From assembly GCF_963921235.1 (NCBI RefSeq), contig NC_086097.1, positions 16,864,001 through 16,928,000 of the forward strand: a stretch of DNA of 64,000 nucleotides. The letters run 5' to 3'. The translations under genes and the position numbers were made by a program. Each line of letters starts with the position of its first letter. The stretch's first letter is position 1. The notes under the pieces were generated by a model. It was not told the origin of the DNA, did not search any database, and was given only the letters and a program-made list of their open reading frames with translations. The stretch is from Mobula hypostoma (Eukaryota). Shown in pieces: positions 18,948-44,835 of this stretch.

Positions 18948-19141
18948 TGCAAACACCAGGAAATCTGCAGATGCTGGAAATTCAAGCAACACACATAAAA
19001 AATGCTGGTGAATGCAGCAGGCCAGGCAGCATCTATAGGAAGAGGTACAGTCGACGTTTCAGGCCGAGACCCTTCGTCAGGACCCTTTGACCTGACGAAG
19101 GGTCTCGGCCCGAAACATCGACTGTACCTCTTCCTATAGAT
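18948..19141. mobile_element. Hairpin-shaped PLE mini-element (left part); its right end is at 22895-22921
   Basis: Inverted pLTR arms; 16-bp TSD TATAGGATGTGAAATA at 18932-18947 and 22922-22937 encloses it together with the nested long PLE. Confidence 0.85.
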
Positions 19142-19201
19142 AACACACATCAAAGTTGCTGGTGAACGCAGCAGGCCAGGCAGCATCTATAGGAAGAGGC
19201 G

Positions 19202-19239
19202 CAGTCGACGTTTCAGGCCGAGACCCTTCGTCAGGACTA
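19202..19239 (-). ncRNA. Minimal type I hammerhead ribozyme in the 3' pLTR
   Basis: UAGUC CUGACGA A GGGUCUCGGCCU GAAAC GUC/GACUG: stem I UAGUC:GACUG, CUGANGA and GAAA core, palindromic ACGU stem III; predicted cut between 19207 and 19206. Confidence 0.85.
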
Positions 19240-19530
19240 ACTGAAGGAAGAGTGAGTAAGGGATTTGAAAGCTGGAGGGGGAGGGGGAGATGTAAAATGA
19301 TAGGAGAAGACAGGAGGGGGAGGGATGGAGCCGAGAGCTGGAAAGGTGATAGGCAAAAGGGGATACGAGAGGATCATGGGACAGGAGGTCCGGGAAGAAA
19401 GACGGGGGGGGGTGACCCAGAGGATGGGCAAGAGGTATATTCAGAGGGACAGAGGGAGAAAAAGGAGAGTGAGAGAAAGAATGTGTGCATAAAAAAGAGT
19501 AACAGATGGGGTACGAGGGGGAGGTGGGGC

Positions 19531-22500
19531 CTAGCGGAAGTTAGAGAAGTCAATGTTCATGCCATCAGGTTGGAGGCTACCCATACGGAATATAAGGTGT
19601 TGTTCCTCCAACCTGAGTGTGGCTTCATCTTTACAGTAGAGGAGGCCGTGGATAGACATGTCAGAATGGGAATGGGATGTGGAATTAAAATGTGTGGCCA
19701 CTGGGAGATCCTGCTTTCTCTGGCGGACAGAGCGTAGATGTTCAGCAAAGCGGTCTCCCAGTCTGCGTCGGGTCTCACCAATATATAAAAGGCCACATCG
19801 GGAGCACCGGACGCAGTATATCACCCCAGTCGACTCACAGGTGAAGTGATGCCTCACCTGGAAGGACTGTTTGGGGCCCTGAATGGTGGTAAGGGAGGAA
19901 GTGTAAGGGCATGTGTAGCACTTGTTCCGCTTACACGGATAAGTGCCAGGAGGGAGATCAGTGGGGAGGGATGGGGGGGACGAATGGACAAGGGAGTTGT
20001 GTAGGGAGCGATCCCTGCGGAATGCAGAGAGAGGGGGGGAGGGAAAGATATGCTTAGTGGTGGGATCCCGTTGGAGGTGGCGGAAGTTACAGAGAATAAT
20101 ATGTTGGACCCGGAGGCTGGTGGGGTGGTAGGTGAGGACCAGGGGAACCCTATTCCTAGTGGGGTGGTGGGAGGATGGAGTGAGAGCAGATGTACGTGAA
20201 ATGGGGGAGATGCATTTAAGAGCAGAGTTGATAGTGGAGGAAGGGAAGCCCCTTTCTTTAAAAAATGAAGACATCTCCCTCGTCCTAGAATGAAAAGCCT
20301 CATCCTGAGAGCAGATGCGGCGGAGACGGAGGAATTGCGAGAAGGGGATGGCGTTTTTGCAAGAGACAGGGTGAGAAGAGGAATAGTCCAGATAGCTGTG
20401 AGAGTCAGTAGGCTTATAGTAGACATCAGTGGATAAGCTGTCTCCAGAGACAGAGACAGAAAGATCTAGAAAGGGGAGGGAGGTGTCGGAAATGGACCAG
20501 GTAAACGAGGGCAGGGTGAAAGTTGGAGGCAAAGTTAATAAAGTCAACGAGTTCTGCATGCGTGCAGGAAGCAGCGCCAATGCAGTCGTCGATGTAGCGA
20601 AGGAAAAGTGGGGACAGATACCAGAATAGGCACGGAACATAGATTGTTCCACAAACCCAACAAAAAGGCAGGCATAGCTAGGACCCATACGGGTGCCCAT
20701 AGCTACACCTTTAGTTTGGAGGAAATGGGAGGAGCAAAAGGAGAAATTGTTAAGAGTAAGGACTAATTCTGCTAGACGGAGCAGAGTGGTGGTAGAGGGG
20801 AACTGATTAGGTCTGGAATCCAAAAAGAAGCGTAGAGCTTTGAGACCTTCCTGATGGGGGATGGAAGTATATAGGGACTGGACATCCATGGTGAAAATAA
20901 AGCGGTGGGGGCCAGGGAACTTAAAATCATCGAAAAGTTTAAGAGCGTGAGAAGTGTCACGAACATAGGTCGGAAGGGATTGAACAAGGGGTGATAAAAC
21001 AGTGTCGAGGTATGCAGAAACGAGTTCTGTGGGGCAGGAGCAAGCTGAGACAATAGGTCGGCCAGGACAGGCAGGTTTGTGGATCTTGGGTAGGAGGTAG
21101 AAACGGGAAGTGCGGGGTGTGGGAACTATAAGGTTGGTAGCAGTGGATGGGAGATCCCCTGAGCGGATAAAGTCGTTGATAGTGTGGGAGACAATGGCCT
21201 GGTGCTCCTTAGTTGGGTCACAATCGAGGGGTAAATAAGAGGAGGTATCCACGAGTTGTTGCTGTGCCTCAGCAAGGTAGAGGTCAGCACGCCAGACTAC
21301 AACAGCACCCCCCTTATCAGCGGGTTTAATAATAATGTTAGGATTAGTGCGGAGGGAGTGGAGAGCAGAGCGTTCCGAAGGAGTGAGGTTAGAATGGGGA
21401 CAAGGTGCGGTGAAGTCGAGACGGTTGATGTCCCGTCGGCAGTTGGCAATAAAGAGATCCAGAGCAGGCAGAAGACCAGAGCGGGGTGTCCATGAAGAAG
21501 AGGAGTGTTGAAGACGGGAGAAGGGGTCATCGGTGGGGGTGGAAGAGTCCTTGCCGAAGAAGTAGGCTCGGAGACGGAGACGGTGGAAGAAAAGTTCTGC
21601 ATCGTGGCGAACACAGAACTCGCTGAGGTGTGGGCGAAGGGGGACAAACGTGAGGCCCTTACTGAGAACAGAGCGCTCTGCCTCTGACAGTTGAAGGTCG
21701 GAGGGGATGGTAAAGACCCGGCACGGATGAGAGCTGGGATCAGAGGGGGGGGGAGGGGGGAGGCTGGGGGTGTCAGTGGAGAGGGGAGGGTTGGGGTGAG
21801 AGGAAGATGGAGCCTCTGAGGGCCCAGGAGTTGACGGTGGGATCTGAGGAAGACGGGGCTGCGGAGTGGTGGTGGGGGAAGGGGAGACGGGAGTCACAAC
21901 AGCAGCACATAAAGACCCGGCCTGGAGTTCAAGGCTGGAGTCGCAGTTGGTGGTTGCGCGATCGCTTTGAATGTCTCCATGGTCGTTGCTGGAGTCCGGG
22001 TTTTGAATATGTCCTGAGGTGTTGGAGCCGGCGAGATCAATGGCAGAGGCCGCAATCTGAAGTTCATGCCTACTAGTTTCATGGTCAGCAGGCTCTGGAG
22101 TCCGTAGATGTAAGATCTTGCGATCTTTGCCTAACATGACAAAGTCAAAGAAACGGCGATTGCAGGCGTGGATCCGACGGAGGATGAAATACCGGGTAGG
22201 ACCATTACAGACGGCGAAGAAAGTGTCCCGAAGGAGTGGAAGGGTCTGGGATAGGGACACCAAGTACCTCCTCATGGCGGAGAGCGTCGCCTTCAGAGCT
22301 TGACGGGAGAAGCGGCGAGAGGCAGAGTCAATGAAATGTGAGTACCTGGGATCCTCAGAAGGTCCAAATTGAGAGGCTTGGAAACGAATCCCAAAGCCAA
22401 CTGGAGTAAGTTGGCGACGGAGGCACGTTCCTAGAAAGGATACATGGCTGTGATAGCGAGTTTGAGTCAAAGTCTGGTCGAAAAGTTGAAGAGCCGAAGA

Positions 22501-22581
22501 AATCACAGATGGGGAGCAGTGAGAGATGGTTTCACTGAACTCCCGTCGAAGAGAGGATCTAAACTTCTTCGGTGTAGGCAT
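19531..22581 (-). CDS. PLE polyprotein: N-terminal region, RT, Cys-rich linker, GIY-YIG endonuclease (1016 aa from the ATG at 22581); RT catalytic motif out of frame
   Basis: KPADKGGAVVV, FYLLPKIHK..PGRPIVS, MDVQSLYTSIP, GVAMGTRMGPSYA, PFLDL, YKPTDSHSYL, CKRNKCYTC, VIYCVRCSRCGLLYIGETRR..EH; YIDD codons at 20585-20596 lie in another frame. Confidence 0.9.
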   Translation of the reverse strand: MPTPKKFRSSLRREFSETISHCSPSVISSALQLFDQTLTQTRYHSHVSFLGTCLRRQLTPVGFGIRFQASQFGPSEDPRYSHFIDSASRRFSRQALKATLSAMRRYLVSLSQTLPLLRDTFFAVCNGPTRYFILRRIHACNRRFFDFVMLGKDRKILHLRTPEPADHETSRHELQIAASAIDLAGSNTSGHIQNPDSSNDHGDIQSDRATTNCDSSLELQAGSLCAAVVTPVSPSPTTTPQPRLPQIPPSTPGPSEAPSSSHPNPPLSTDTPSLPPPPPSDPSSHPCRVFTIPSDLQLSEAERSVLSKGLTFVPLRPHLSEFCVRHDAELFFHRLRLRAYFFGKDSSTPTDDPFSRLQHSSSSWTPRSGLLPALDLFIANCRRDINRLDFTAPCPHSNLTPSERSALHSLRTNPNIIIKPADKGGAVVVWRADLYLAEAQQQLVDTSSYLPLDCDPTKEHQAIVSHTINDFIRSGDLPSTATNLIVPTPRTSRFYLLPKIHKPACPGRPIVSACSCPTELVSAYLDTVLSPLVQSLPTYVRDTSHALKLFDDFKFPGPHRFIFTMDVQSLYTSIPHQEGLKALRFFLDSRPNQFPSTTTLLRLAELVLTLNNFSFCSSHFLQTKGVAMGTRMGPSYACLFVGFVEQSMFRAYSGICPHFSFATSTTALALLPARMQNSLTLLTLPPTFTLPSFTWSISDTSLPFLDLSVSVSGDSLSTDVYYKPTDSHSYLDYSSSHPVSCKNAIPFSQFLRLRRICSQDEAFHSRTREMSSFFKERGFPSSTINSALKCISPISRTSALTPSSHHPTRNRVPLVLTYHPTSLRVQHIILCNFRHLQRDPTTKHIFPSPPLSAFRRDRSLHNSLVHSSPPSLPTDLPPGTYPCKRNKCYTCPYTSSLTTIQGPKQSFQVRHHFTCESTGVIYCVRCSRCGLLYIGETRRRLGDRFAEHLRSVRQRKQDLPVATHFNSTSHSHSDMSIHGLLYCKDEATLRLEEQHLIFRMGSLQPDGMNIDFSNFR

Positions 22582-22714
22582 CACCGGAAGAGGCTTCGCA
22601 GTAGTGAATTTAAACGCAAACAACAGGAATTCTGCAGATGCTGGAAATTCTAGCAACACACATCAAAGTTGCTGGTGAACGCAGCAGGCCAGGCAGCATC
22701 TATAGGAAGAGGCG

Positions 22715-22752
22715 CAGTCGACGTTTCAGGCCGAGACCCTTCGTCAGGACTA
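22715..22752 (-). ncRNA. Minimal type I hammerhead ribozyme in the 5' pLTR
   Basis: Identical to 19202-19239; predicted cut between 22720 and 22719. Confidence 0.85.
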
Positions 22753-22939
22753 ACTGAAGGAAGAGTGAGTAAGGGATTTGAAAGCTGGAGGGGGAGGGGG
22801 AGATGCAAAATGATAGGAGAAGACAGGAGGGGGAGGGATAGAGCCGAGAGCTGGACAGGTGATAGGCAAAAGGGATACGAGAGGATCATGGGACAGGCCT
22901 GCTGCGTTCACCAGCATCTTTTATAGGATGTGAAATAGG

Positions 22940-26700: not shown

Positions 26701-27799
26701 TGCCAAATCCATTGTTGTTATTTAATCCCACCCCTGAGATTGTGGTCTTACCCCAGGGCTTTTGATGTATGTTCATTTTATTTTTTGCAATATTGCTTAG
26801 CAGGGAATAAACATTGAGTTAATTCAGGATAGTAAGTCAAAAGTATAGAAATAACAGTTACTAGGGAGGGGAGTGGTTTAAACTAAACAGCTGAACAAGC
26901 CGTGGGCAGGAGGAGATTTTTGTGATATGCGGCGTATTTTAATGGTCTTAAACTCTGGAGGAAGCAGATTTAGTACTTGCTTTCAAAAGGAAGTCAAGTA
27001 AAGGACTTGCTGAATTTCTTTGGTACATTTCAGAGGGCTTTATTTAAAATTTTTGTTAGTGTTCAGAAAACTTGCGTAATTTTTATTATTAAAAAGTCTT
27101 AAGGATGCATCAACTTTAGGTCTCAATAAGTCCAACTAAGTTAAAATCACAAAGTCACAGGCCAATGTGATGTGTCTGTGCTCTGAATCTGTAAATGATA
27201 CAGTGAAGTATTCCACGATTTGAAATGTTGTTATCCTGATACCTTACCCTTATCAGAATATGGAGACACAATTGTGCCACTTGTTAGACACAGCAATGAA
27301 ATCTAGACTTAACTCTGCATTTGTTAAGGACAAGTGGAGTGAGCCTACTTTTCAATTTGGTAGGAAATAATTTCACTTTGAAAGTAATTCCATTGCCTCT
27401 GACTGGAGGCATGTGTCACAGGGATCGGTGCTAGGTCCATTGTTGTTTATTATCTGTATTAATCATTTAGATGATAATGTCATAAACTACTTTGACAAAT
27501 TTGTGATGACATCAAGATAGGAGGTGTAGTGGACAGTGAGGAAGACTATCAAAGTTTGCAGCAGGATCTGGCCCTACTGGAAAAATGGGCTGAAAAATGG
27601 CAGATGGAATTTACTGCAGACAAGTGTGAGGTGTAGAACTTTGTGAGGACAAGCCAGGGTAAACCTTACACAGTGAATGTTAACAACAGGAATTCTGCAG
27701 ATGCTGGAGATTCAAGCAACACACATCAAAGTTGCTGGTGAACGCAGCAGGCCAGGCAGCATCTATAGGAAGAGGCGCAGTCGTGCAGCATCTATAGGA

Positions 27800-29238
27800 A
27801 TGTTCGTGACACTTCTCACGCTCTTAAACTTTTCGATGATTTTAAGTTCCCTGGCCCCCACCGCTTTATTTTCACCATGGATGTCTAGTCCCTATATACT
27901 TCCATCCCCCATCAGGAAGGTCTCAAAGCTCTACGCTTCTTTTTGGATTCCTGACCTAATCAGTTCCCCTCTACCACCACTCTGCTCCGTCCAGCAGAAT
28001 TAGTCCTTACTCTTAATAATTTCTCCTTTTGCTCCTCCCATTTCCTCCAAACTAAAGGTGTAGCTATGGGCACCCGTATGGGTCCTAGCTATGCCTGCCT
28101 TTTTGTTGGGTTTGTGGAACAATCTATGTTCCGTGCCTATTCTGGTATCTGTCCCCCACTTTTCCTTCGCTACATCGACGACTGCATTGGCGCTGCTTCC
28201 TGCACGCATGCAGAACTCGTTGACTTTATTAACTTTGCCTCCAACTTTCACCCTGCCCTCAAGTTTACCTAGTCCATTTCCGACACCTCCCTCCCCTTTC
28301 TAGATCTTTCTGTCTCTGTCTCTGGAGACAGCTTATCCACTGATGTCTACTATAAGCCTACTGACTCTCACAGCTATCTGGACTATTCCTCTTCTCACCC
28401 TGTCTCTTGCAAAAACGCCATCCCCTTCTCGCAATTCCTCCGTCTCCGCCGCATCTGCTCTCAGGATGAGGCTTTTCATTCTAGGACGAGGGAGATGTCT
28501 TCATTTTTTAAAGAAAGGGGCTTCCCTTCCTCCACTATCAACTCTGCTCTTAAATGCATCTCCCCCATTTCACGTACATCTGCTCTCACTCCATCCTCCC
28601 ACCACCCCACTAGGAATAGGGTTCCCCTGGTCCTCACCTACCACCCCACCAGCCTCCGGGTCCAACATATTATTCTCCGTAACTTCTACCACCTCCAACG
28701 GGATCCCACCACTAAGCACATCTTTCCCTCCCCCCCTCTCTCTGCATTCCGCAGGGATCGCTCCCTACACAACTCCCTTGTCCATTCGTCCCCCCCATCC
28801 CTCCCCACTGATCTCCCTCCTGGCACTTATCCGTGTAAGCGGAACAAGTGCTACACATGCCCTTACACTTCCTCCCTTACCACCATTCAGGGCCCCAAAC
28901 AGTCCTTCCAGGTGAGGCATCACTTCACCTGTGAGTCGACTGGGGTGATATACTGCGTCCGGTGCTCCCGATGTGGCCTTTTATATATTGGTGAGACCCG
29001 ACGCAGACTGGGAGACCGCTTTGCTGAACATCTACGCTCTGTCCGCCAGAGAAAGCAGGATCTCCCAGTGGCCACACATTTTAATTCCACATCCCATTCC
29101 CATTCTGACATGTCTATCCACGGCCTCCTCTACTGTAAAGATGAAGCCACACTCAGGTTGGAGGAACAACACCTTATATTCCGTATGGGTAGCCTCCAAC
29201 CTGATGGCATGAACATTGACTTCTCTAACTTCCGCTAG
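27800..29238 (+). pseudogene. PLE RT/GIY-YIG coding remnant with in-frame stops
   Basis: In-frame RYIDD (YIDD codons 28171-28182); stops at 27886-27888, 27952-27954 and 28270-28272; intact GIY-YIG in ORF 28495..29238. Confidence 0.9.
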
Positions 29239-29530
29239 GCCCCACCTCCCCCTCGTACCCCATCTGTTACTCTTTTTTATGCACACATTCTTTCTCTCAC
29301 TCTCCTTTTTCTCCCTCTGTCCCTCTGAATATACCTCTTGCCCATCCTCTGGGTCACCCCCCCCCCGTCTTTCTTCCCGGACCTCCTGTCCCATGATCCT
29401 CTCGTATCCCCTTTTGCCTATCACCTGTCCAGCTCTCGGCTCTATCCCTCCCCCTCCTGTCTTCTCCTATCATTTTGCATCTCCCCCTCCCCCTCCAGCT
29501 TTCAAATCCCTTACTCACTCTTCCTTCAGT

Positions 29531-29568
29531 TAGTCCTGACGAAGGGTCTCGGCCTGAAACGTCGACTG
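29531..29568 (+). ncRNA. Minimal type I hammerhead ribozyme
   Basis: tagtc ctgacga agggtctcggcct gaaac gtc gactg; predicted cut after 29563. Confidence 0.85.
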
Positions 29569-29844
29569 CACCTCTTCCTATAGATGCTGCCTGGCCTGCT
29601 GCGTTCACCAGCAACTTTGATGTGTGTTACAGTGAATGTTAGTTCTCTGATGTGTGCAGTTGAACAATGTGATCTGGGAATACATATCCATAATTTCTTG
29701 GAAGTGGCATTCACATGTAGATTGGGCTGTAAAGAGAGCTTTTAGAACATTGGCCTTCGTAGATTATGTCAGTGAGTACAGGAATTGGGATGTTACGTTG
29801 AAGTTGTACAAGATGTTGGTAAGACTGAACTTAGAGTATTGTGT

Positions 29845-30476
29845 CAACACACACAAAAACTGCTGGTGAACGCAGCATCTATAGGAAGAGGTACAGTCGA
29901 CGTTTCGGGCCGGGACCCTTCGTCAGGACTGACAGTAAGAAGAGATAGTAGGTGATGAATATTGGCATGAATATTGACTTCTCTAACTTCCTTTAATGCC
30001 TCTCCTCCCCTACACACCCCATCCCTTATTTATTTATTTTATATATTTTTCATATATTTTTAATTTTTCCCCCCTTTTTCTCTCTCTCTCTCTCTTTTAC
30101 CTCCCTCTGTCCCTCTCACTATAACTCCTTGCCTGCTCTCCACCCTCTGGGCTCCCCTCTCCCCTTCTCTTTCTCCCCAGGTTTCGCGTCCCATGATCCT
30201 CTCCCTTCTCCAGCCTCATATCCCTTTTGCCAATCAACTGTCCAGCTCTTGGTTCCATCCCTCCCCTCCTGTCTTCTCCTATCATTTTGGATCTCCCCCT
30301 CCTCCTCCCACTTTCAAATCTCTTACTATCTTTTCTTTCAGTTAGTCCTGACGAAGGGTCCTGGCCCGAAACATCGCCTGTACCTATTCCTATAGATGCT
30401 GCCTGGTCTGCTGCGTTCACCAGCATTTTTTGTGTGTATTCCTTGAACTTACAGCATCTGCAGATTTCCTCGTGTC
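29845..30476. mobile_element. Inverted PLE-end element (related subfamily)
   Basis: 12-bp TSD AGAGTATTGTGT at 29833-29844 and 30477-30488; hammerhead motifs at 29894-29931 (minus) and 30343-30380 (plus, mutated). Confidence 0.9.
29894..29931 (-). ncRNA. Minimal type I hammerhead ribozyme
   Basis: Perfect stem I CAGUC:GACUG, stem II GGGU-CCCG-GCCC, intact core. Confidence 0.8.
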
Positions 30477-33400
30477 AGAGTATTGTGTGCAGTTTTTGTC
30501 ACACACACCAGGAAAGATATCAATAAGCTTGCAAGAATGCAGAAAAAATGACAAGGATGTTGCCAGGACTTCAGGACATGGGATATAGTGGATTGCTGAA
30601 TAGATTAGGAGTTTATTCCCTGGAGTGTAGGACAATGAGGGGAGATTTGATAGAGGTATACACAATTATGAGGGACATAGGCAGCCTAAAGACAAGCAGG
30701 CTGAGTTTGGATGGGATTAGGACTAGAGATCATAGGTTAAGCGTGAAGGGTGAAATATTCCAGGGGAACCTGAGAAGAAACTTCTTAATTCAGAGGATAG
30801 TGAGAGTGTGGAGCAAGCTACCAGCAGAAGTGGTAAATGTGTGCTCAATTATAACACTGAGGAGAATTTTGAACAGATACATTGGATGGGAGGGGTTTAG
30901 TCAGATATAGTCTGGAAGTAGGTAGATGGGATTAAGCAGAAGAGCAGGTCAGCACTGACTAGATGGGCCAAAGGGCCTGTTTCTGAGTTGCAGTACTCTA
31001 TGATTCTGTAAGTCATAATGTCTTATTTACTGAGGTTGCAGGCTATTTAATTGGATGCTAGAGATGGATTTGCCAAATTTCCACTTGGTTGCACAGCTTC
31101 TGCAGGGAAATACCTGAGAAAGAGAAACTTTGAGAAAGTCCTCATGCAATTGTGTCTTTTTCACTCTGTTTTCACTTGGGCTTTCTTCTTTTGTTATAGC
31201 ACCACGCACCATGCTTCCTTTTCACTGTCAGGGTCCCACAGTCCAGTGATCTGTGTACACATTTGAATGCTATGTACAGGGCCGTCCAAGCAAGATGTAA
31301 GTTGTTTCCATTCGTTGTCAGCACAACTTAATTGTGTAAAAAAGGATTTTTAGGGGTAGGCCTTCTGGAGTATTACATACATCTCTGGTCACCCCATTAT
31401 GGATCATAAGGCCATACAACATAGGAGCAGAAGTAGACCATTTGGCCCATCGGGTCTCCTCCATCGTTCAATAATGGCTGGTCCTTTCTCCCCCTCCTTA
31501 GCCCCACTCCCTGGCCTTCACACCTTAACGTTTGATGCCTGTCCAATCAAAAACATATCAATCTCTGCCTTAAATGCACCCAACGACCTCAACCCCTCAG
31601 CTGCCAGTGGTAATAAATTCCACAAATTCACCACCCTCTGGCTATAGGGAAGACACTGAGGCTTCGGAGAGGGTGCAGAGGAGGTTTATCAGGACGCTGC
31701 CTGGTTCAGAGGGCAGGTGCTGTAATGAGAGGTTCGATTCACTTCGGTGGTTTTCTCCGTAGTGCCGAAGGAAGAGGGGAGATCTGATAGGCACAGATGG
31801 AGTGGACAGAGAGTATCTGATTCTCAGGGTGAAATGTCTATTACCAGAGGGCACACATCGAAGGTGAGGGGGGTAGGATCAAAGGGCAGGTGAAGTTCTG
31901 TAGATGATGTACACACCATCTATAGAGGCACTGGAACCATTGGACAAGTCCTGTAGGTGATGTCCATGCCCCCTACAGAGGAATTAGGACCGATGGACAA
32001 GTGATTTTACTCAGAGAGTTGTGGATGCCTGGAATGCACTGCCTGGTATGATGGTAGAGGCAAATACATTAGAGGCTTTTAAAGAATATTTAGATTAGCA
32101 CTGAGATGTGAGGAAGATGAAGGGATAAAAGTTTGGGTATTTTTGATGTGGGACAAAGGGCCTGTTCCCGTGCTGTACTGTTCAATGCTCTGGGTCTTGT
32201 TTTTGATTTTCTTAAGCTTAAACTGAAAGATTCGCTTCCTTAAGTATATGACTGAAGAGGGATCATGCACAAGGCACTGGGTAAGAATGTAGAACTCTTT
32301 TAAAGAGCTTGGCATGACTGGCAGATATTGGAGTTCAATGACTATTACGATAGAGAATCCCATTCAACCAGTGTACCAAATTGCCTTCTATAAAAGCCAC
32401 AATAAAGAAAGAGAGTTCAAGTTTACTGGCTTTCTGAACCAGGCATCATCTGTTTTTCATGATTATTCTCTTTTTAGCTAGTCTCTCACCACCATCATTT
32501 GCAATTTCCCCCCACCAATGCTGGCAGGCAGTTCTATAATGCTTGTCTTTGGGCCTTCAGCACCTCTTCAATGTAAATATTAGCCATTCATTCAACACTG
32601 AATAATCTCTACAAGTCCTGGCATCATCTTCAATAACTATTCCAATCAGTCTCTATTTGCAATAGCCCTTTGCTGCTAAACCAATCGCTCCCTGGAAACA
32701 AAAGCCAGACCTACACTGCAGGCTTCCTGTAAATACGGGGGAGAGGGAGAGCCTCCAGAACCTAAACACCAAAGTTTGCTGCTGATCATAATATGCAGGG
32801 CATTGTTGCTCTGTTTCCTAACGATGAGCTAAATTCAAGATTCCAGATTCTTTATTATCATTCTTCTGTATGCGACTGTAAAGGAAAACAAAATAGTTAT
32901 TACTCCAAAGTTCAAAGTAAGTTTATTATCATAGTACATATATGTCACCGTTTACTACCCTGGGATTCATTTTCTTCTGGGCATTTACAGTAGATACAAA
33001 AGCACAATCAAATCAATGGAAAACTACACACAAAAACAAGCAACCAATGTGCAAAAGGTATCAAGATGTGCGAATACAAAATGAAAAAATTGTAAGTAAT
33101 CAATAATATTGAGAACACAAGTTGCAGAGTCTTTGAAAGTGAGCCCATATTTTGTGGAAGTAGTTTAGTGTCGGGTTGAGTTATCCACTCAGGTTCTGGA
33201 TCTGATGCAGCATAAGAAAACACAAAAAGAACACAATAAAACGTTTAAAAAATTATAAAAGTGATCCTAAAAAATAGAGCGCTGATGCTCATTCATCCAG
33301 TTCCTACTCTTTTTAGATCCTGCAGTGAAATTAACAGCATTCTATTAGCATGTTAAAGACACACAATAGACAGTTTATAAAAGCTCTTCATAAATAATCT

Positions 33401-33639
33401 TTCTTGTATTGATCTACTACAATGTCAAGTCAAGTTTATTGTCATGTGCTCAGCTATGATGATATCCAGATGCAAAGAAAGACTTGCTTGCAGCAGTATT
33501 ACAGGAACATGGATTGAAATGACAGACCACAGGCTATATCTCAATTATAAAAGGCAATGAAGTATAAAATGACCGTGCAAAGCAAGACCTTACAACAAAA
33601 TAAAACATAATCAGAGACAAGGCCATGGTAGTGTGAGAG

Positions 33640-34060
33640 GTGGTGCACGTCTTCCACCACTGATCCCTTGATAAGAACTGCTGTGTGTTCTCCTGATTTC
33701 TCCTTTCTGACATTGTATGGGTGCTGTTGAATCGTGAACCAGGAGTTTGTCTCTCTGTAGTGCTGAAAGGAGGGGCGGAGAAGATATGCCTGGTGGTAGT
33801 ATCACACTCAAAGGGTTAAAAAATCTTGGGGTATTATTTGCTACATATGGAGGTTGGGAGGATGGAATGAGGGGACAAGATGACTCCTGCCCTTGTTCTG
33901 GATGGAAGGAAAGGGCGGGGATGTTGGAATAGCACCACAAGTACTGTTGACTTTGGTGGACGAGAGACAACAGTTAAGGATAAAGCAGGACACATCAGAG
34001 GGTCTGGTTTGGAAGGATCAGAGCCTAAAGGACAGAGATGAGGAAATTGGGAGAACAGCA
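33640..34060 (-). mobile_element. Old PLE coding fragment
   Basis: 'SSPPLLSALQRDKLL' resembles PLE 'FPSPPLSAFRRDRSL'; the nucleotide sequence also resembles 20000-20340. Confidence 0.55.
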
Positions 34061-34321
34061 TCAAAGTGCCAATTTTTCACATTTTCCATTCTGAATGCTG
34101 ATGAGAATGCGGAATTGAAAGCAGTTTGTTTTTCCCTCTATTCATTCCTCTTGGTCATCGATTGGGGGTCATTTGATCTCTATTCAACTTAAATGCTCCT
34201 TATTTACAGAGCACGTTGATGTTGTCTCTCTCTGCCCTTCTATACGTTCACCTTTCCTGCACTACACCACGGGGCATTGTGATATCATCGTACTTCCTGA
34301 GATTCCATCCTGAGTTAAAGA

Positions 34322-34450
34322 GGCATGGTAGCGGAGTGGTTAGTACAATTGCTTCACAGTGCCAGTGATCTCTGATCAGGGTTCGATTCCCGCTGCTGTC
34401 TGTATGGAGGTTGAGTTTTCTCCCCGTGACCGTGCGGGTTTCCTCCCATG
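34322..34450 (+). mobile_element. tRNA-derived V-type SINE head
   Basis: GGCATGGTAGCGGAGTGG (A box), GGTTCGATTCC (B box), followed by 'tttctccccgtgaccgtgcgggtttcctcc'. Confidence 0.7.
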
Positions 34451-35189
34451 TGACGAAGAGAGACTTACTGTAGTGATCAATAAACCAATTGTTTGGATTC
34501 AAATGACCTTGCCCGGTGTCACTCGAGCGACCACCATCCTTAGCACTCCTTCTCTGCCACCTGTCCCACACCCTGGCCACTGTGCATAGCACTGTAATTT
34601 AGAGTAATATTTAAGTCTTGCACTGTACTGCTGCAGCAAAACAATAATTTACAATGTTTGTCAGTGATATTAACATTATTTTGAGTCCAATTCTGATACA
34701 AGATGATAAATTGGAAAAGTTATTTTCAGTACCAGTATTATATTTTAAACAGCATAAACAATGAGTGAGATAGGTAATATTGTTCAGCAGTTATTGTCGG
34801 TCTGGGGAATATATAACAAACTGGAAGGACAGCATCCACAGATGCTAAAAACCAGTAAACTGCTGGAGGAACCCAGTGGGCTGAGCAGTATCTATGGGGG
34901 TAGAGCGGGGTGGGGGTGGGGGAAGGAATTATCCCTTACAGATGCTGGCTAACCAGCTGAGTTGCTCCAACAGATTGCTCTTTGCTCCATATTCCAGCGT
35001 AAGTATTCTCCTTTGTCTCCACGAGAGCTGATTTGTCACTTTCAATGTGTATCGCCACATCCAAACATTAAACAGCTTCAGTCCAAGTAAATTAATAAAA
35101 GCCAGTAAAAGCTGGAACATCTGGACAGCAAAGATGCATACATCAGGATGCTCTTTATTGACTACAGCATCCCTCAACACTAATCAATA

Positions 35190-36320
35190 ACTTCTTGGCC
35201 AGAATACCTCACTGCGCAATTGGAACCTTGACTTCCTCACATGCAGACTCCAGTCGGTTTGGATGGACAACAATGTCTCCTCCATGATCTCCATCAGCAT
35301 AGGTGCATCACAAGACTGTGTGGATAAGCACTGCTCCATTGCCATATTCAAGCTTGCTGATGCCATCACTGTCATAGGCTGAATCAAAGGTGGTAATGAA
35401 TCACCATACAGGAGGGAAATTGAAAACCTGGCTGAGTGGTGCCTTAACAATAACCCCTACTCAATGTCAACAAGATCAAGGAGCTGATCATAGACTTCAG
35501 GAGGGGGAATCCAGAGGTCCATGAGCCAGTCCTGATCGGAAAGATCAGAGGTGGAATGGGTCAACAACTTTAAATTCCTCAGTGTTATCATTTTGGGGTG
35601 TCTGTCCTGGGCCCAGCACATGTGCAATTGCAAAGAAAGCACGATAGTGCCTCTACTTCCTTGGGAGTTTGCAAAGATTTGGCTTGACATCTAAAACTTT
35701 GACTAACTTCTATAGATGTGTGGTGGAGAGTATATTGACTGGCTGCATCACAGCCTGGTATAGAGACACCAATGCCCTTGAATGGAAAATCCGACAAAAA
35801 AATAATGGAAATGGCTCAGTCTAGCACAGTAAAGTCCTTTCCATTATTAAGCAGATCTACATGGAGTATTGTCACAGGAAAAGCAGCGTCCATAATCAGC
35901 AACTTTCACCAGACAGCCCATGCTGTTTTCTCAATACTGCCACCAGGAAGAAGGTACAGGAGCCTCAGGACTCACACCACTAGGTCCAAGAACAGTTGTT
36001 ACCCCTCAACCATCAGGCTCTGGTATCAAAGGGAATAAATTCACTCAATTTCAGTTGCTGCATCACTGACTGTTCCCACAATTTATGAACTTACTTTGAA
36101 GGACTCTCCATCTCACCTTCTTGATATTTATTGTTTATTTATTATTATTATTTCTTTCTTTTTGTATTTGTAGTTTGTTGTCTTTTGCACAGCGGTCGAA
36201 TACCCATGGTCTTTCATTTATTCTATTATGGATTTATTGAGTATGCCCACAAGAAAATGAATCTCAGGGTTGTATAAGGTGACATATATGCACTTTGATA
36301 ATAAATTTACTTTGAATTTT
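35190..36320 (+). mobile_element. Rex1/Babar-like RT 3' fragment
   Basis: 'ttcaagcttgctgatg' (K.AD.), 'LPPGRRYRSLRTHTTRSKNSCYP' and an AT-rich 3' UTR. Confidence 0.75.
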
Positions 36321-37788
36321 GAAAATCTCAATCAGCGGAGGACAGATTATAAATGTGAAGCCACCCTGATGGTTTAGTCTATAATCTGTTAGTGGCTGTT
36401 TTGAATGAGGATACATTCTTATGATTCGGACATACATCATAAATTTGTGACCAGCAATCCCAGTTATGAATCACGTTATTATTCTAGGCTGTTGTGAGAG
36501 AGAAGTTATGAATCACACACCCTTCCTGGAATTTTAATCCTGACACATAGGAAAACAGCAGGTTCCTGGCACCTCATGCAATGCTAAAACTCGTAATGAG
36601 CAGACCATTATACCTGGGAAATGGGCAGAGTAAATAACTTGAACATGTTCACATGTACAGATGTCTCCTGCTTCTATTCCCCACTGGTAAATTCACTACC
36701 TGCCGCTAGTTTAACCTAATTGCAGTAAGGTTTGGTTAGCTTATCAAGGATGTGAATTATTAGCAATGGTTTTCTGTCATGTGATTTCTGGTACATTGTT
36801 TCTTTGCAATAAAGCATGCCTGAGTTGCTGCAGTTACATAAAAGTTCCGATGTGCAGGTACAGTAATTACTCTTCCAAGTGCATTTGTTGGCTCCATCAG
36901 GGCTGTATTCAGATCAAGATGTGTGCAAGAGTTTGAACTTACACAGCAATCTCATGCCTTCTGGATTTTCTTGCGGTGTACAAACTACCGTTTGTATGTA
37001 AACAGAATACGGGAGCCAAAACCATACGTGAGTCTGATCGGCAAAGTTAATCTGTTTCTGATGGATTTGAATGGGCCAAATGCTGGCCAACAGACCCCTT
37101 TGAACCATGCCATTGGAACCTTTGTAGTTATCTAAATCTGAACTGGAGAGAGAATAAGGTTACTCTCTGCGAAAAGAGGCAAATTGTCTGAAGTTGGATC
37201 ATGTTTTTCAATACAGTTCATTCCTGCATATTTCTTATCTTTTTTGTTACAATAAAGAATCTCCTGGACCAATATCCTCAGGATTGAGTCCATGTAACCT
37301 GCATTAGTTAGACAGGATGTTTCTTCCAGAGAGAAAATGTTAAACTCTACAGGGCGAAGGTGTAAGGTGAGAGGGGGAACGGTTAAAGGAGATTGATGAG
37401 GTAAGTTGTTTTACACAGATATTGGTTAGTGCTTGGAACATGATGCCACAGGAAGACTGGATTCATATATAATAATAATAATTTACTTAGAGAGCACTTT
37501 TCATACTGACAATGTACCTCAAAGTACTTTACAATGGGATAAAGTGCCAACACGAAAATAAAAGACCAGAAGGTGCTAGTTAAAAGCAAAGTTAAATAAA
37601 TTGTTCATTCCCGGTGTTTAAAAGTGTCTGCATCCCTTATAGTTTCAGGTATTGAATTCCACAGTTTAGGAACGCTGTTCTAAAAAGCTGACCTGCCAAC
37701 TATCCTTTGAGCAAGATTGTTTAAATTTATGGAGAAGGAAGACCTAAGAGCTTGAACAAGATTATAATGCAAAAGTGATTCTGTGATC

Positions 37789-37962
37789 ACAAACAAGAGC
37801 AGATTTGCAGATGCTGGAATCCAAGCAACACACACAAAATGCTGGAGGAATTCAGCAGGCCAGGCAGCATCGATGGAAAAGAGTACAGTCGATGTTTTGG
37901 GCCGAAATGCTTTGGCAGGACTTGCCTTCCCTGCTGAGTTCCTCCAGCATTTTGTGTGTGAG
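37789..37962. mobile_element. Short inverted PLE-end element (older subfamily)
   Basis: 9-bp TSD TCTGTGATC at 37780-37788 and 37963-37971; inverted arms 'acacacaaaatgctggagga' / 'tcctccagcattttgtgtgt'. Confidence 0.8.
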
Positions 37963-39609
37963 TCTGTGATCTTCTCTGGACCCAGACTATTTAAGAGACC
38001 TCTATTGGTTAGAGGTTGAACGTGGATGTTGTGTCCTAGTGGTCTACATGATACGCAAGCCAGTATGCGAGACAGGTGAGTATGATATGGAGAGCACGCT
38101 GTTGTCCATGTAGCAGGCTCCCCTGTTCCAAACAGGTGATGGATCCAAAGGACTGATACAGTTTGTCACCAGCAGCATCACGTGAGTTGCCAGTCAGTAT
38201 TGAACTCAATGCAAGACTGCCTTAGGGACTCCAGCTCCGGATTTTTCCTGAGGGTTTACTGCCAATGCCTTCCCCATGAGTGGGTATAGCCAGATTTTCC
38301 TTCCGAAGCCTTTTCCTTGAGTAGATATAGCCACAAGACAGCAGAGGTTTGAGATAACAGTTCTTCTTCTCCTAGATGAGCCATCAAACACAGCTGATGA
38401 GCCCCATCTGCCTGAAGCGACTGGTTTAAGCACCAGCAACCCGCCTTTGCCCCTTTCCTTGTCAGTAGAAACAGTTCCTATGGGTATTATAGCTAAGCCA
38501 CGTGTGAAGGCAAAAAGTTGGACTTGATTGACGGAGGCTTTTTGAGATACATGCTACTGGGAGCATTTAATAGGCAGTGGGAGCCTGCCCCCTCTACAAC
38601 CCCTGGCTATGACGGAACCCAGACCACTGACAGCTTTAAAAACTACAGAACTTCAAAATTAATTCTAAAAGATACAGGAAGCCATTGCAGAGTAGTTAGG
38701 ATGGGAGTGACATGCTCCCTCATCCTGGTTTTAGTTAAAACCAGTAATATTTAAAAGGCATTGGCTTGGTTCATAGACAAGTAGGGAATGGAGGGATATA
38801 GACCTTGTGCAGGTGGCTAGTATGGACATTGTGGGCTGAATGGCCTGTTTTCCCTGCTTGTGCTGTTCTATGTTCTATGCACATTGGACTGCCCATATCA
38901 TATCATTGGCTTGATTGACACCAGATTACCAAAACAGACATCTTATCCTGTTCTAAGAGGAGATTATGAAGTGGACAGAAAAAAAAACTTCAAGAATGTA
39001 CTCCAAGTAGCATCGCCATTGACTCAAAGCAGAGAAGGAGCATTTGGAATGCTACTGAGAACTTCAACGCTACGCATCAGGAGTAAAGGGAAGCCCTGTG
39101 CGAGCAGCAATCCAAGTGAGTCATTTCCCAAAGCACTCAGCCCACATCGGTGGTTCCAGCATTGACCTCGTCAGCCACCTCAGAGCCCACAAAACCAGAA
39201 TGAAAGCAAGTCACCTTTGACCCATCCTGAAATAGCATCAAGAGGAAAGGCATCATGGAGTAGGGTGGTCCAGCATGGGAATACACGTACCTGACGGAAG
39301 TTGGGAACTCAAAAGAATGTGCAAGCTTAATATGAACGGCTTTTGTGTTCGGCTCTCTCTCTACATATTTTAATTAAAACAATCTACCAATGACATGATC
39401 AATTCTGAACGAAGCACACTGGGCAGCTTTCGTAAGTTATCAGCCAGTAACAATGCAGATGTCCCAGGGAATACTGTTCAGAATGGGTCTTCTGCTGCTT
39501 GCAATTTAATACTTCACAATTCTCGTAGTTTTGAATGCCAATTGTCATAATTTTGAATGTCATTTAGAATTGAACGTACAATATCATGATGTAGGATCTG
39601 ATGACCAGA

Positions 39610-39990
39610 AAATTATAAGATATAGGAGCAGAATTAGGCCATTCTGCCCATTGAGCCTGCTCTGCCATTCCGTCATGACTGATTTACCATCGCTCTCAAT
39701 CCCATTCTTGGATGTCAGAGGGGTAGAAGCTGTGTACCCAGTGACTTGGCCTCCACAGCTGCCTGTGGCAAAGAGTTCCACAGATTCACCACCCTCTGGT
39801 TCAAGAAATTCCTTCTCAACTCTGCTCTAAAGGGACATTGTTGTGTTCAGGGGTTGTGCCCTCTGGTCCTAGACTGCCCCACTATGGGAAACATCCTCTC
39901 CACATCCACTCTATCAAGGCCTTTCAGTATTTGATAGATTTCGATGAGATCGCTCTCACTCTTCTAAACTCCTGTGAGTACAGGCCAAGA
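39610..39990 (-). mobile_element. CR1 3' fragment
   Basis: Similar to the CR1 3' ends at 48805-49320 and 59595-60000. Confidence 0.75.
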
Positions 39991-40544
39991 ATCATTCTGC
40001 TACGATGGCAGAATAATGGAAGCATGGATGGATGTTCGACAGGAACCTCCTTAAATAAGTGACTTCCTCACATGACTTGTCATAGAGTCATACCAGTGAT
40101 ATCATTTCTTTGCAGTTTTTGTCACCAGCCTACCGGAACATTTCTATACCATACCAAACCCAATTCACTGGCTGGAATTGCATTCCCAACAGTTTACATT
40201 GTAAGTGGTTCACACTGCCCGTACACCCCTAGACAGTGTTTCATACAAAGCCCAGGATCTCCACTCATGGTAAATGGAGCACGACCAGTAGGGGGAGCCC
40301 CAACCTTAGCAAACATCTGAGCAGCAGCAGGCAAGCAAAATAGGTCAAAGCAATTAGGCCACTGGTGCGTGACTGTGTGGATACCTGCCCCGTTAGATTA
40401 AGAACCACAAACTCTTGCAGAATGTATCCAAACAATATAAAAAGTGAAAAGATTAAGTAATTCAGAATTTGCATCAGCTTTGGTAATTATGGGTCAGTAA
40501 TATCTCTCCGAAGATATTAACCCCAATGTATGTATGTATGCATT

Positions 40545-40835
40545 TATTTACTAAGTGATACAGTGTGGAATAGGCCCTCCTGGATCTTTTAGCCATGGTG
40601 CCTAACAACCCTTGACAATCTCGATTTAACTCGAACCCAATGCCGGTACAACTTACAATGACCGATTAACCTACCCGGCATATCTTTGGACTGTGAGAGG
40701 AAACCGGAGCGCCTGGGAAAATCCCATGCATTCCACGGGGATGGACGTACAAACTCCCCACCCGGGACCCCAGGATTGAACTCCGAAACGCCCCGAGCTG
40801 TAATCGCATCGCGGTAACCGCTATGCTGCCGTGGT
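40545..40835 (-). mobile_element. V/HE1-type SINE, CpG-rich
   Basis: Minus strand 'acggcagcatagcggttaccgcgatgcgattacag...gagttcaatcct...gggagtttgtacgtcc'. Confidence 0.65.
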
Positions 40836-43322
40836 GTTCTCTGCTGAACAAACCAACTGAGCCTGTTGTACACGTAGCGAAAATACCAGCGGAACGAATG
40901 CACCCATTAAGTATCCAAGGAATGATTTACACAGCTGCCCCTGCACCTGGGAGGCAGAACGGTGGAGGAGGGGAGTGATGGCCATCACATGGTGAGGATC
41001 AGGCTACAGGGTTACATTGTGCATTGGTTTACATTGTAAATTTCAGGGCAAGGGTTATATTGTGAAATGCCAGAGAGATCAGAACCTCTAGAGCACAAAC
41101 CACTTGCTTGGATAATGCACCACTGGAGAGGTGTTTTGCAAATAAATAAAGAGCAAGAAGATTAGTAAGGAATCAAGTCAAACCTAGCAGAGACAAAAAG
41201 GTATCCTCTGGGCTGAGGCAGAACGTTAGGCATCCTTTGAAATGAATGCTTTCTCTAAGTCTTCACTGAACTGGAGGATGATGCAGTTATTGTAATTATG
41301 TGCGAAATGCTTGATGGTTAAACAGAGTGAGAGAGAAACTATTAAATGATCTTTGATAGTTGGTGCCATGTCAGAGGACTCAATGTTGGCAAAAATTATA
41401 TTGTTGTTAAACAAGGGACAGAAGTTTAGTCTGAGGAAGTAGTCCCAGTGGGGGACCTTTACGATGAAAATATCTGGGAGATAGTAGAAACTGTCATTTA
41501 GAAAGATGGATCAATCAAAAAATTTAAAAATGATTCAAAAATGGTTCAATTTAATATCAGAGAATGCATACAGTATACAACCTGAAATTTGTCCTCTTCG
41601 CAGACATCCACAAAACAAGAAACCCCAAAGAGTGGATGATAGAAACATCAGAACCCCAAAGCCGCCCCACTCACAAGCACCAGAAGAAGCACCAACACCC
41701 ACCCCACACCATGCAAGCAATAGTAAATGCCTTTAAAGAGACCTTGATCGAGAGTTCTTCAAAAACTACAGTCCATAACCCAGCATTTCAGTATCTCAGA
41801 CAGGCTCTCTCACTCCATCGATGGACAGCGAGGTCACTCCTGCAAAAACGAGGGCAGGGACCAGCAACTCACTGTTCTGATGTTACAATATTCCACGCTG
41901 CTTCTCCAAGCCCCCGAATTGAGGACCGACAGGCACTCACTCCTCATCAAAAGAGAGAGAGAGAGATCATTTGAGTAGAGGGACCTTCCTCTGACAGCAG
42001 CACCCACTGCTTGTGAAGGACTGTAGTTTGAACTATAGATCGCGGATTCTGACAGAACCCCAACCACCTTGAAAAGAAAAGAAAGACATAAGGGAAGATT
42101 TTTAAGGACGTAAGAACAGAAGAAATAGGAACAGGAGTAGGTCATCTGGCCTGTTGAATCTGCTCCGCCATTCAATAAGATCATGGTTGATCTGACCATG
42201 GACTCATCTCCACCTACCTGCCTTTCCCCATAACCCTTAATTCCCCTACTATGCAAATATCTATCCAACCTTGTCTTAAATATACTTACTGAGGTAGCCT
42301 CCACTGCTTCATTGGACAGTGAATTCTACAGAATCACCACTCTCTGGGAAAAGCAGTTCCTCCTCATCTTCATCCTAAATTTACTCCCCTGAACCTTGAT
42401 GCTATGTCCCCTAGTTCTAGTCTCACCTACCAGTGGAAACAGCCTTCCTGTCACTATCTTGTCTATCCCTTTCATAATTTTATATGTTTCTATAAGATCT
42501 CCTCTCATTTTTCTGAATTCCAGTGAGTACAGTCCCAAGCAACTCAATCTGTCCTCATAGTCTAACCTCCTCATCTCTCCAGAGATGGTGAACCTGGTGA
42601 ACCTCCACTGAACCGCCTCCAAAGCCAGTGTGTCCTTCCACAAGTAAGGAGACCAGAACTGCACGCAGTACTCCAGGTGTGGCCTCACCAGAAGCCTGTA
42701 CAGTTGCAGCATAACCTCCCTGCTCTTAAATTCAATCCCTCTAGCAATGAAGGCTAACATTCCATTTGCCTTCTTGATAACCTGCTGCACCTGTAAACCA
42801 ACCTTTTGTGATTCATGCACAAGACTCCCAAGTCCCTCTGCACAGCAGCATGCTGCAAATTTTTTCCACTTAAATGATAATCTACTCTTTCATTTTTCCT
42901 TCCAAAGTGGATGGCCTCGCATTTACCAACATTGTACTCCATATGCCAGACCCTTGCCCACTCACTTAACCTATCTATATCTCTCTGCAGACTCTCCGTA
43001 TCTTCTGCCCAATTTGCTTTTCCAGTCAATTTACTATCATCAGCAAACTTAGATACACTACACTCGGTCCTCTCTTCCAGATCGTTAATGTGTATCATGA
43101 ACAGTTGGGGGCCCAGCACTGACCCCTGCGACACACCACTCACCACTGAATGCCAGCCAGAGTAACACCCATGTATCCCAACTCTCCGTTTCCTATTAGT
43201 TAACTGATCCTCTATCCATGCTAATACATCACCCCCAACTCTATGCATCCTTATCGTATGGTTAAATCTTTTATGCGGCACCTTATCAAACGTCTTCTGG
43301 AAATCAAAGTAAATAACATCCA

Positions 43323-43417
43323 AACAACAGGAATTCTGCAGATGCTGGAAATTCAAGCAACATACATCAAAGTTGCTGGTGAACGCAGCAGGCCAGGCAG
43401 CATCTATAGGAAGAGGT
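43323..43417 (-). mobile_element. 95-bp PLE insert corresponding to the sequence downstream of the hammerhead cut
   Basis: 7-bp TSD ACATCCA at 43316-43322 and 43418-43424. Confidence 0.85.
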
Positions 43418-43950
43418 ACATCCATCTGTTTCCCTCTATCCACTCTGCTTACTAAATTCTCAAAGAACTCCAGTAAATTTGTCAAACAGGACCTGCCTTT
43501 GCTGAATCCATGCTGCATCTACCTGACTTTTCAGATGCCTCGCCATTTCTTCTTTAATGATAGCTTCAAGCATTTTCCCATCTACAGATGTAAAACTAAC
43601 TGGCTTATGGTTACCTGCCTTTTGTCCACATCCTTTTTTTGAACAGTGGTGTAACATTTGCTGTTTTCCAGTCCGCTGGGACCTGCCCAGAGCCCAGGGA
43701 ATTTTGGTAAATCATTACCAAAGCCTCCACTATAACTTCTGTCATTTCTTTCAGTACTCTGTGATGCATCCCATCAGGACCAGGGGACTTGTCTATCTTC
43801 AGGCCCATAACTTTGTTCAGCACTACATCTTTAGTGATAGTTGTTGTATCGAGGTCCTCACCTCCCATTGCATTCATAGCATCTCTCTTTGGTATGTTAG
43901 ACATGTCCTCCACTGTGAAGACTGACACAAAATAGTCATTCAAAGCCTTT

Positions 43951-44042
43951 CACATCAAAGTTGCTGGTGAACGCAGCAGGCCAGGCAGCATCTCTAGGAA
44001 GAGGTACAGTCGACATTTCGGGCCGAGACCCTTTGTCAGGAC
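43951..44042 (-). mobile_element. 92-bp PLE insert starting at the 5' edge of a mutated hammerhead
   Basis: 7-bp TSD AGCCTTT at 43944-43950 and 44043-44049. Confidence 0.8.
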
Positions 44043-44084
44043 AGCCTTTACCATTTTCTCACTACCCAATATCAATTCCCCCTT

Positions 44085-44835
44085 CAAGTCAAGTCAAGTC
44101 AAGTCAAGTCAAGTCAAGTCAAGTCACTTTTTATTGTCATTTAGACCATAACTGCTGGTACAGTACACAGTAAAAACAAGACAATGTTTTTCAGGACCAT
44201 GGTGCTACATGAAACAATACAAAAACCACACTAGACTACAGACACGACGAATTCTGCAGATGCTGGAAATTCAAGCAACACACGCAAAAAATGCTGGTGG
44301 AACGCAGCAGGCCAGGCAGCATCTATAGGAAGAGGTGAGTCCTTCGTGAGTCCTGACGAAGGGTCCTGGCCCGAAACGTCGACTGTACCTCTTCGTATAG
44401 AAGCTGCCTGGCCTGCTGCGTTCCACCAGCATTTTTTGTGTGTGTTACTAGACTACAGATCTACCCAGGACTGCATAAAGTGCACAAAACAGTGCAGGCA
44501 TTACAATAAATAATAAACAAGACAATAGGCACAGTAGAGGGCAGTAGGTTGGTGTCAGTCCAGGCTCTGGGTATTGAGGAGTCTGATGGCTTGGGGGAAG
44601 AAACTGTTACATAGTCTGGTCCTGAGAGCCTGAATGCTTCAGTGCCTTTTGTCAGATGGCAGGAGGGAGAAGAGTTTGTATAAAGGGTGTGTGGGGTCCT
44701 TCATAATGCTGTTTGCTTTACGGATGCAGTGTGTGGTGTAAATGTCTGTAACGGTGGGAAGAGAGACCCCGATGATCTTCTCAGCTGACCTCACTATCCG
44801 CTGCAGGGTTTTGTGATCCGAGATGGTGCAATTCT
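44085..44835 (-). mobile_element. Rex/Babar-like 3' fragment with a (GACTT)n tail, seen as (AAGTC)n at 44085-44126
   Basis: 'LQRIVRSAEKIIGVSLP...IMKDPTHP...LLPS' peptide. Confidence 0.8.
44243..44446. mobile_element. Hairpin PLE mini-element with a hammerhead at 44349-44385 (plus)
   Basis: 13-bp TSD ACTAGACTACAGA at 44230-44242 and 44447-44459; inverted arms. Confidence 0.9.

Follow-up and report, generated by a model that had tools for sequence, protein, structure and literature searches.

The 64,000-nucleotide stretch of the Mobula hypostoma genome analysed here (RefSeq assembly GCF_963921235.1, contig NC_086097.1, positions 16,864,001 to 16,928,000 of the forward strand; hereafter the window) contains a dispersed repeat family, the longest member of which, as found by comparison of the window with itself, occupies 19142-22897 on the minus strand. 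By its motifs the family is an endonuclease-positive Penelope-like element (EN+ PLE) with a minimal hammerhead in its terminal repeats, and its members in the window include short arms, either single or in inverted pairs. The subject of this work is where these arms end with respect to the ribozyme, an initial annotation having proposed that short arms stop at the hammerhead cut site and may be a genomic record of self-cleaved RNA. Throughout, +1 denotes the first base 3' of the GUC triplet and -1 is C17; the reference cut lies between 22720 and 22719, from which all arm ends are counted, and the sense of the three arms that end near the cut is that of the minus strand.

The element and its ribozyme

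The longest member is a young copy of more than unit length, comprising a pseudo-long terminal repeat (pLTR, 22897-22655), a tail (22654-22616), an open reading frame (ORF, 22662-19531) and a further pLTR (19385-19142), the direct repeats being of 244 bp and 98.4% identical. The first in-frame ATG of the element lies at 22581, which is position +139, and two offsetting frameshifts flank the YIDD motif of the reverse transcriptase (RT), leaving that motif out of frame; the copy at 27800-29628 has the motif in frame, along with stop codons. The RT motifs, YIDD included, were picked out by eye and their identity is presumptive. Pfam gave no match in the 1043-residue frame itself, and a GIY-YIG match at E=1.9e-4, just below the curated cut-off, in frame 28273-29235. 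RT is followed by a C-terminal GIY-YIG domain within a single ORF, this domain having both the C-x2-C between GIY and YIG and the two downstream histidines of the CCHH arrangement, and the linker between RT and endonuclease has C-x4-C-xx-C upstream of GIY-YIG. Moreover, the family has pLTRs, an inverted partner copy, a tail at one end, target-site duplications (TSDs) of variable length and termini about 37 nt apart, all as in EN+ PLEs. It is on these motifs, as defined by Craig et al. 2021 (PMC8557442), for whom a CX2-5CxxC linker defines Neptune/Nematis, and not on a tree, that the family is placed as an EN+ PLE of Neptune/Nematis type. The element, the ribozyme, the tail and the inverted arms are all of known kinds. 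Upstream of the main ATG, and out of frame with it, a frame of 29 codons with ATGs at +21 and +57 runs to +110 (22610-22699, minus strand).

Each terminal repeat of the longest copy contains one minimal type I hammerhead such as those described by Cervera and De la Pena 2014 (PMC4209133). In the reference motif (22716-22751, minus strand) the 5' strand of stem I at -32..-29 is followed by CUGACGA, stem II, GAAA-C-G-U-C and the 3' strand of stem I at +1..+4, and pattern scan and alignment find the conserved core, helix I, helix II, the NUH triplet and the palindromic 15.2-16.2 all present; Rfam returned no match at the gathering score. The G10.1-C11.1 pair is G-C in some copies and G-U in the young subfamily and in most of the depth of the assembled contigs discussed below, position 11.1 there being mostly U and not the usual C (on the plus strand, G in only 20% and 31%). 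The predicted fold of the monomer is an inactive rod from -33 to +5. The active dimer is a pseudoknot for ViennaRNA. Minimal hammerheads cleave poorly, and not as monomers, according to PMC4209133, which describes in vivo cleavage by the minimal hammerheads of animal PLEs as being without evidence.

Arm ends around the predicted cut

Three long-terminus arms end close to the predicted cut, at -1, +4..+7 and +7, and the positions and mutual independence that were initially proposed for them are both borne out, since they belong to three separate insertions, each bounded by a TSD. The first (27683-27783, minus strand, +101 to -1, 98% identical to the reference pLTR) ends 1 nt past the cut and is the long arm of a two-armed insert, B. 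Its inner junction (27784-27800, minus strand) consists of one extra T and a 16-nt re-copy of +28..+13 (nhmmer E=0.32), which resembles the product of a template jump. Its partner arm (27800-29628, plus strand) is a 1.83-kb 5'-truncated copy with the C-terminal half of RT including YIDD, GIY-YIG, pLTR and hammerhead (29536-29563), which starts at the short terminus at +65 and crosses the cut, the whole being flanked by a 13-bp TSD (27670-27682 and 29629-29641).

The second near-cut arm, E (43323-43417, minus strand), is single and lies between 7-bp TSDs (43316-43322 and 43418-43424) inside a long interspersed nuclear element (LINE) which we take to be CR1-like; its end can be placed only to +4..+7 because of 3 nt of microhomology, and its site is empty in two paralogous LINE copies. 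LINE endonuclease-RT frames, presumably CR1-like, lie at 1568-4210, 15197-16246 and 42754-43518, all on the minus strand, and the 102-bp insert E keeps the last of these open. The third arm (44243-44336, minus strand, ending at +7) is the long half of insert G, and its junction holds a 9-nt duplication, of which an alternative reading reaches +1 with one change. Its partner (44349-44446, plus strand) runs from -32 to +65 and includes a whole hammerhead, the TSD being of 13 bp (44230-44242 and 44447-44459). Two of the three arms, those at 27683-27783 and 44243-44336, are therefore halves of two-armed inserts in which the partner arm crosses the cut, a point absent from the initial annotation.

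These ends were set against a census of the window, in which BLAST and an nhmmer profile search gave 33 hits; eight with E >= 0.3 were dropped (one of them the 16-nt re-copy of insert B) and in two cases a pair of hits was counted as a single arm, leaving 23 arms, with the ends of old copies (9923-9975, 34851-34977, 11909-12370 and 45101) placed by eye. Fifteen of the 23 cross the cut, three end in -2..+7 and five at +12..+37. With arm ends spread evenly over +40..-100 as the null model, 1.31 ends are expected in -2..+7 (p=0.14 for the three observed), and only one arm in the 23 ends within -1..+2. Hence, of the proposal that short arms stop at the cut, the three nearby ends stand and an excess over chance is not confirmed. 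The copy at 60642-60706 was considered as a further end at +1, which would give 4/23 and p=0.041; the bases concerned match a flanking LINE paralog, and it was scored at +16.

A second survey placed assembled contigs of two organisms, X1 and X5, on the 300 nt of 22600-22899, giving 122,600 and 86,871 contig records, respectively, of which 5,605 and 4,439 were placed only in part. The figures for loose ends come from the 12 listed rows of 750. As a positive control, the outer termini of the element were recovered, with 314 (X1) and 262 (X5) contigs at +68 and 183 at +108 in X1, their flanks being long and AT-rich. Among these 12 rows there is none at the cut site, nor at +8, where clipped alignments would gather; the lowest listed rows, of 183 (X1) and 83 (X5) contigs, are a ceiling for any cut-site row if the listed rows are the largest. 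The inner ends that are listed lie at -30, -31 and -32. The summed contig depth inside the ribozyme, which is not a copy number, is 0.83-0.84 of the downstream peak, a ratio that fits most copies crossing the cut. The survey bounds a sharp stop at the cut and is compatible with a minor stop of several-fold.

The strong stop at the cut that was put forward in the initial annotation is not seen, given the 15 crossing arms and the position of the best-supported listed inner ends of the contigs. The window alone decides neither the cluster at the cut nor the one at the 5' edge of the ribozyme described below. Two features of the contig data were set aside as evidence of truncation, namely a dip in depth at 22700-22719, which coincides with subfamily differences at +6/+7 and with divergence of an older subfamily, and the rows 22715 and 22677 'before' (median 23-24 nt, agreement 0.59-0.69), which are subfamily artefacts.

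Arm ends at the 5' edge of the ribozyme

The stronger signal is at the other edge of the ribozyme, and it implies uncleaved templates. Ends at 19083 (-31), 19091 (-29), 44042 (-31) and 44349 (-32, or -42) had been noted from the outset and are real, and a fifth, at 37922 (-32), had been overlooked. The first two belong to insert A, whose long arm (18949-19083, minus strand) runs from +104 to -31 and whose partner (19091-19141, plus strand) starts at -29, is broken at +22 by the young long copy and resumes at 22896-22921, within a 16-bp TSD (18932-18947 and 22922-22937). Arm F (43951-44042, minus strand) is a single short-terminus arm that runs from +61 to exactly -31, where it abuts bluntly on a 7-bp TSD (43944-43950 and 44043-44049). 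The end at 44349 is the start of the partner arm of insert G, where a non-consensus G precedes -32 and BLAST stretches the alignment to -42, and that at 37922 is the long arm of insert D (37789-37962), an older-subfamily insert with a short arm ending at about +25 and a 9-bp TSD. In all, -33..-29 holds four firm and two ambiguous ends against 0.55 expected, and with all six the cluster has a scan-corrected P=0.005. In the contigs, the inner loose ends at -30, -31 and -32 number 194, 187 and 476 in X1 and 129, 157 and 353 in X5, these six inner rows all being among those listed. In the -30 and -31 rows the loose ends are long (medians 170-218) and their agreement is low (0.33-0.36), in which respect these rows resemble true junctions.

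It is quite plausible, if short of probable, that the stop at -30..-32 reflects run-off at a capped transcription start on the first base of the ribozyme, in which case translated, uncleaved RNA would be the preferred template. A-32 lies within an initiator-like word, YYANWYY, in both young and old subfamilies; such a word, however, occurs five times in 300 nt and is here partly fixed by the pairing of stem I. A DPE-like (downstream promoter element) word downstream of -32 was not counted in support, being two bases off the expected position. The ends of arm F and of the long arm of insert D are blunt, at -31 and -32 respectively, as run-off would have them. Moreover, a single C is present in 3/3 joints from 22750/22751 among the 12 joint rows listed, as copying of a cap would give, and the short arm of insert G has its non-consensus G at -33. 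Against this, an extra G occurs at only two of the five window ends, 101 further joint rows are unlisted and the orientation of the letters in the joints is itself deduced. Copying of the cap has been noted for L1 and SVA (PMC2912911). In Drosophila, the pLTR of Penelope contains an internal promoter with initiator and DPE (PMC2377424), which counts for a capped start, but the D. virilis start is farther upstream, by 46 nt and an intron of 75 nt.

Somewhat more tentatively, the stops may be structural, with no RNA end involved, RT pausing where it enters the hairpin (+4..+7) and the complementary DNA (cDNA) being let go or joined when the inverted repeats of the hairpin have been copied in full (-29..-32). 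The rod-like fold from -33 to +5 speaks for this, and the complementary strands of stem I would let two opposed cDNAs anneal. The hairpin of the cDNA is, however, weak (-2.8 to -4.2 kcal/mol), and arm F and the long arm of insert D are without microhomology at their junctions. For the ends at -30..-32 a capped start is slightly favoured over a hairpin-driven stop, and this only as a lead.

It is improbable that the -31 boundary is instead a 3' splice site, the ends reflecting spliced RNA. A pyrimidine tract and YAG at -33..-31 are present in 9/9 of the compared copies that retain upstream sequence, and the D. virilis intron extends as far as the 5' end of helix I (PMC4209133). On the other hand, none of the four firm window ends has an upstream exon attached, and YAG is also demanded by stem I.

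Origin of the arms and relation to known systems

Taken together, the arms are probably ordinary products of insertion by internal priming of a Neptune/Nematis-type PLE, copied mostly from uncleaved RNA, the favoured stopping point being the ribozyme's first bases. By analogy with the anole element as studied in vitro (Frangieh et al. 2024, PMC11167929), the endonuclease would cut both target strands, and each target 3' end could then prime RT at one of two internal starts, at about +65 and about +102. The outcome would be single arms or two inverted arms within one TSD. This is the anatomy observed: TSDs of 7-16 bp are present at nine of the 14 loci examined, and each of the six TSD-bounded two-armed inserts (A, B, C, D, G and J) has one long outer end (about +100 to +104) and one short (about +55 to +69), matching the two internal RT starts and the extension of both strands in the anole element. 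Most cDNAs would be copied from uncleaved RNA and so pass the cut, as do the 15 arms of the census, and the preferred early stop would be that at -30..-32, seen in both window and contigs and partly confounded by older subfamilies; its cause may be capped-start run-off at A-32, perhaps hairpin-driven release and joining, or something else. For the three near-cut ends the likeliest sources are scatter, a pause at the hairpin base (+5) and joining at microhomology, perhaps with some run-off on cleaved RNA mixed in. Indeed, of the suggestion that all three represent run-off at the cut, only part can be kept, two of them ending 3-6 nt short where the hairpin also closes, so that a pause at the rod's base accounts for ends at +4..+7 as well as trimmed run-off does. 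The anole element, again, has uncleaved RNA as its main template in vitro, its ribozyme mutants leave the in vitro insertion products unchanged, and the main text of PMC11167929 gives zero RNA-seq reads beginning or ending at the cut.

A number of points weigh against this account. All three near-cut ends belong to young long-terminus arms, such that 3/12 young copies (p=0.028) and 3/10 long-terminus arms (p=0.030; 0/13 short arms, Fisher p=0.068) end in -2..+7, and no young arm ends in +8..+40 (three ends in 94 arm-nt against none in 396, p=0.007), these being post hoc values for which both the subsets and the width of -2..+7 were picked after inspection of the data. The inner end of the long arm of insert B, at -1 and followed by an extra base and a jump, is what would be expected of run-off. 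The monomer hairpin is no stabler than shuffled sequences (z=-0.98), and with only the firm four ends the 5'-edge cluster is not significant (scan-corrected P=0.23). The -32 row in the contigs (median loose length 129 and 79) is partly divergence of an older subfamily, the consensus of the row beginning like the upstream sequence of the copy at 12026 onward. Further, the unlisted rows average at most about nine contigs, so that an excess at the cut of as much as about ninefold would be compatible; loose ends in X1 are under-counted, and junction contigs near the cut, with their brief overlap with the repeat and two subfamily mismatches at +6/+7, may be under-detected.

A rival reading is a class of arms from cleaved RNA, in which a portion of the RNA undergoes self-cleavage in the germ line, tail-started RT runs off the 5'-OH at +1 and end-joining trims 0-6 nt. 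We regard such a class as doubtful. The logic behind it holds, in that cleaved RNA would give run-off copies of about 65 or 100 nt, because RT is initiated within the 5' region of the RNA (PMC11167929), and in that copies crossing the cut need a template that is uncleaved, read-through, circular or switched. The proportions of long and young arms near the cut (p ~0.03) and the junction of insert B speak for it, as do two precedents: the 5' junctions of R2 track ribozyme cleavage sites (Eickbush et al. 2013, PMC3774820) and cleavage by the anole ribozyme is protein-assisted in vitro (PMC11167929). Against it stand the lack of a significant excess over all 23 arms, with a single end in -1..+2, the absence of a cut-site row among the 12 listed, the crossing of the cut by the partner arms of the same inserts, the poor cleavage by minimal hammerheads and the U that predominates at position 11.1. 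Enrichment at the cut is therefore unproven and, if present, minor; a minor run-off class, recording self-cut RNA, is possible. It is distinctly unlikely that the arm ends preserve, as a fossil map, the two 5' ends of the RNA, with a major capped run-off at -32, cap copied, and a minor self-cleaved run-off at +1 found mainly in long-start arms.

Canonical EN+ PLEs have inverted 5'-truncated copies and a one-sided tail of 30-40 bp (PMC8557442), and the present family is like them in its C-terminal GIY-YIG, pLTRs, inverted partner arms, tail at one end and hammerhead within the pLTR; many inserts here are, however, only about 100-200 bp, and in the available part of that paper inner ends are not mapped to the ribozyme. 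The anole Poseidon element PAc shares two internal RT starts that bound the tail, the cutting and extension of both strands, a hammerhead upstream of the RT starts and uncleaved RNA as the main template, but is of the Penelope/Poseidon clade and has its ORF starting inside the ribozyme, whereas the family here has the C-x4-C-xx-C linker and a first ATG at +139 (PMC11167929). The minimal hammerheads of metazoan PLEs have the same CUGANGA/GAAA core, a helix I of 4-5 bp, palindromic ACGU for helix III, an unpaired base after A9 and opposite-strand pairs 100-700 bp apart (PMC4209133); the predicted ribozyme here has a helix II of 4 bp, with G10.1 pairing with U in the young subfamily.

The notion of genomic 5' junctions that record a ribozyme-made RNA end is that developed for R2, where cleavage by an HDV-like (hepatitis delta virus) ribozyme sets the element's 5' end (PMC3774820), whereas the majority of copies here pass the cut and end at the opposite edge of the ribozyme. 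Twin priming of L1 likewise gives two opposed cDNAs within one TSD, joined by microhomology or extra bases (Kojima 2010, PMC2912911), but its two parts are without sequence overlap, while the two arms here are copies of one terminal region, made from two fixed starts. No paper mapping Penelope-like 5' truncations to the hammerhead was found by title or opening, in a search that most subscription journals fall outside.

A pile-up of junctions at +1, if real, would be genomic evidence of in vivo cleavage by a minimal hammerhead. Were the fossil map true, the relative height of its two peaks, taken across many thousands of copies, would yield the fraction of the RNA cleaved in the germ line by such a ribozyme. 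The signal at the 5' edge, for its part, would locate either the RNA start of the element or a structural stop, and would show uncleaved RNA to be the main template. At 122,600 and 86,871 contigs on 300 nt, the family is copious enough for a decisive test of the junctions.

Insert C (29845-30476) is two-armed, with a short arm to about -58 and a long arm to about -358, both crossing the cut, and a 12-bp TSD. Arm I (52643-53175, minus strand) is a single short-terminus arm which reaches about -428 and has a 9-bp TSD, and the older two-armed insert J (54100-55137; 12-bp TSD) has a long arm that ends at about +37 and a short arm to about -960. In very old arms at 34851-34977 and 60659-60707 the end falls at about +12..+16, close to a palindrome of six bases (+15..+20) that may be a further joining site. 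A short five-base tandem repeat lies between inserts F and G, at 44087-44125. The young 3.76-kb copy splits the short arm of insert A between +22 and +30 (19141-19142 and 22896-22897) without a TSD of its own, and was either inserted into, or recombined with, the terminal repeat of its own family.

Pattern scans for further copies gave no match in viral contigs, metagenome contigs or prokaryote genomes. The contigs of the two organisms contain tail-to-tail joints of long and short termini on opposite strands (22616-22654 and 22618-22652, in 6 and 9 contigs of X1 and in 1 and 4 of X5), the reverse of the usual outward-facing arrangement. A further joint, from 22751 to 22641 (depth 310, X5), leads from -32 via one C to +79 and, if on one strand, would make a tandem unit of about 111 nt containing one whole ribozyme.

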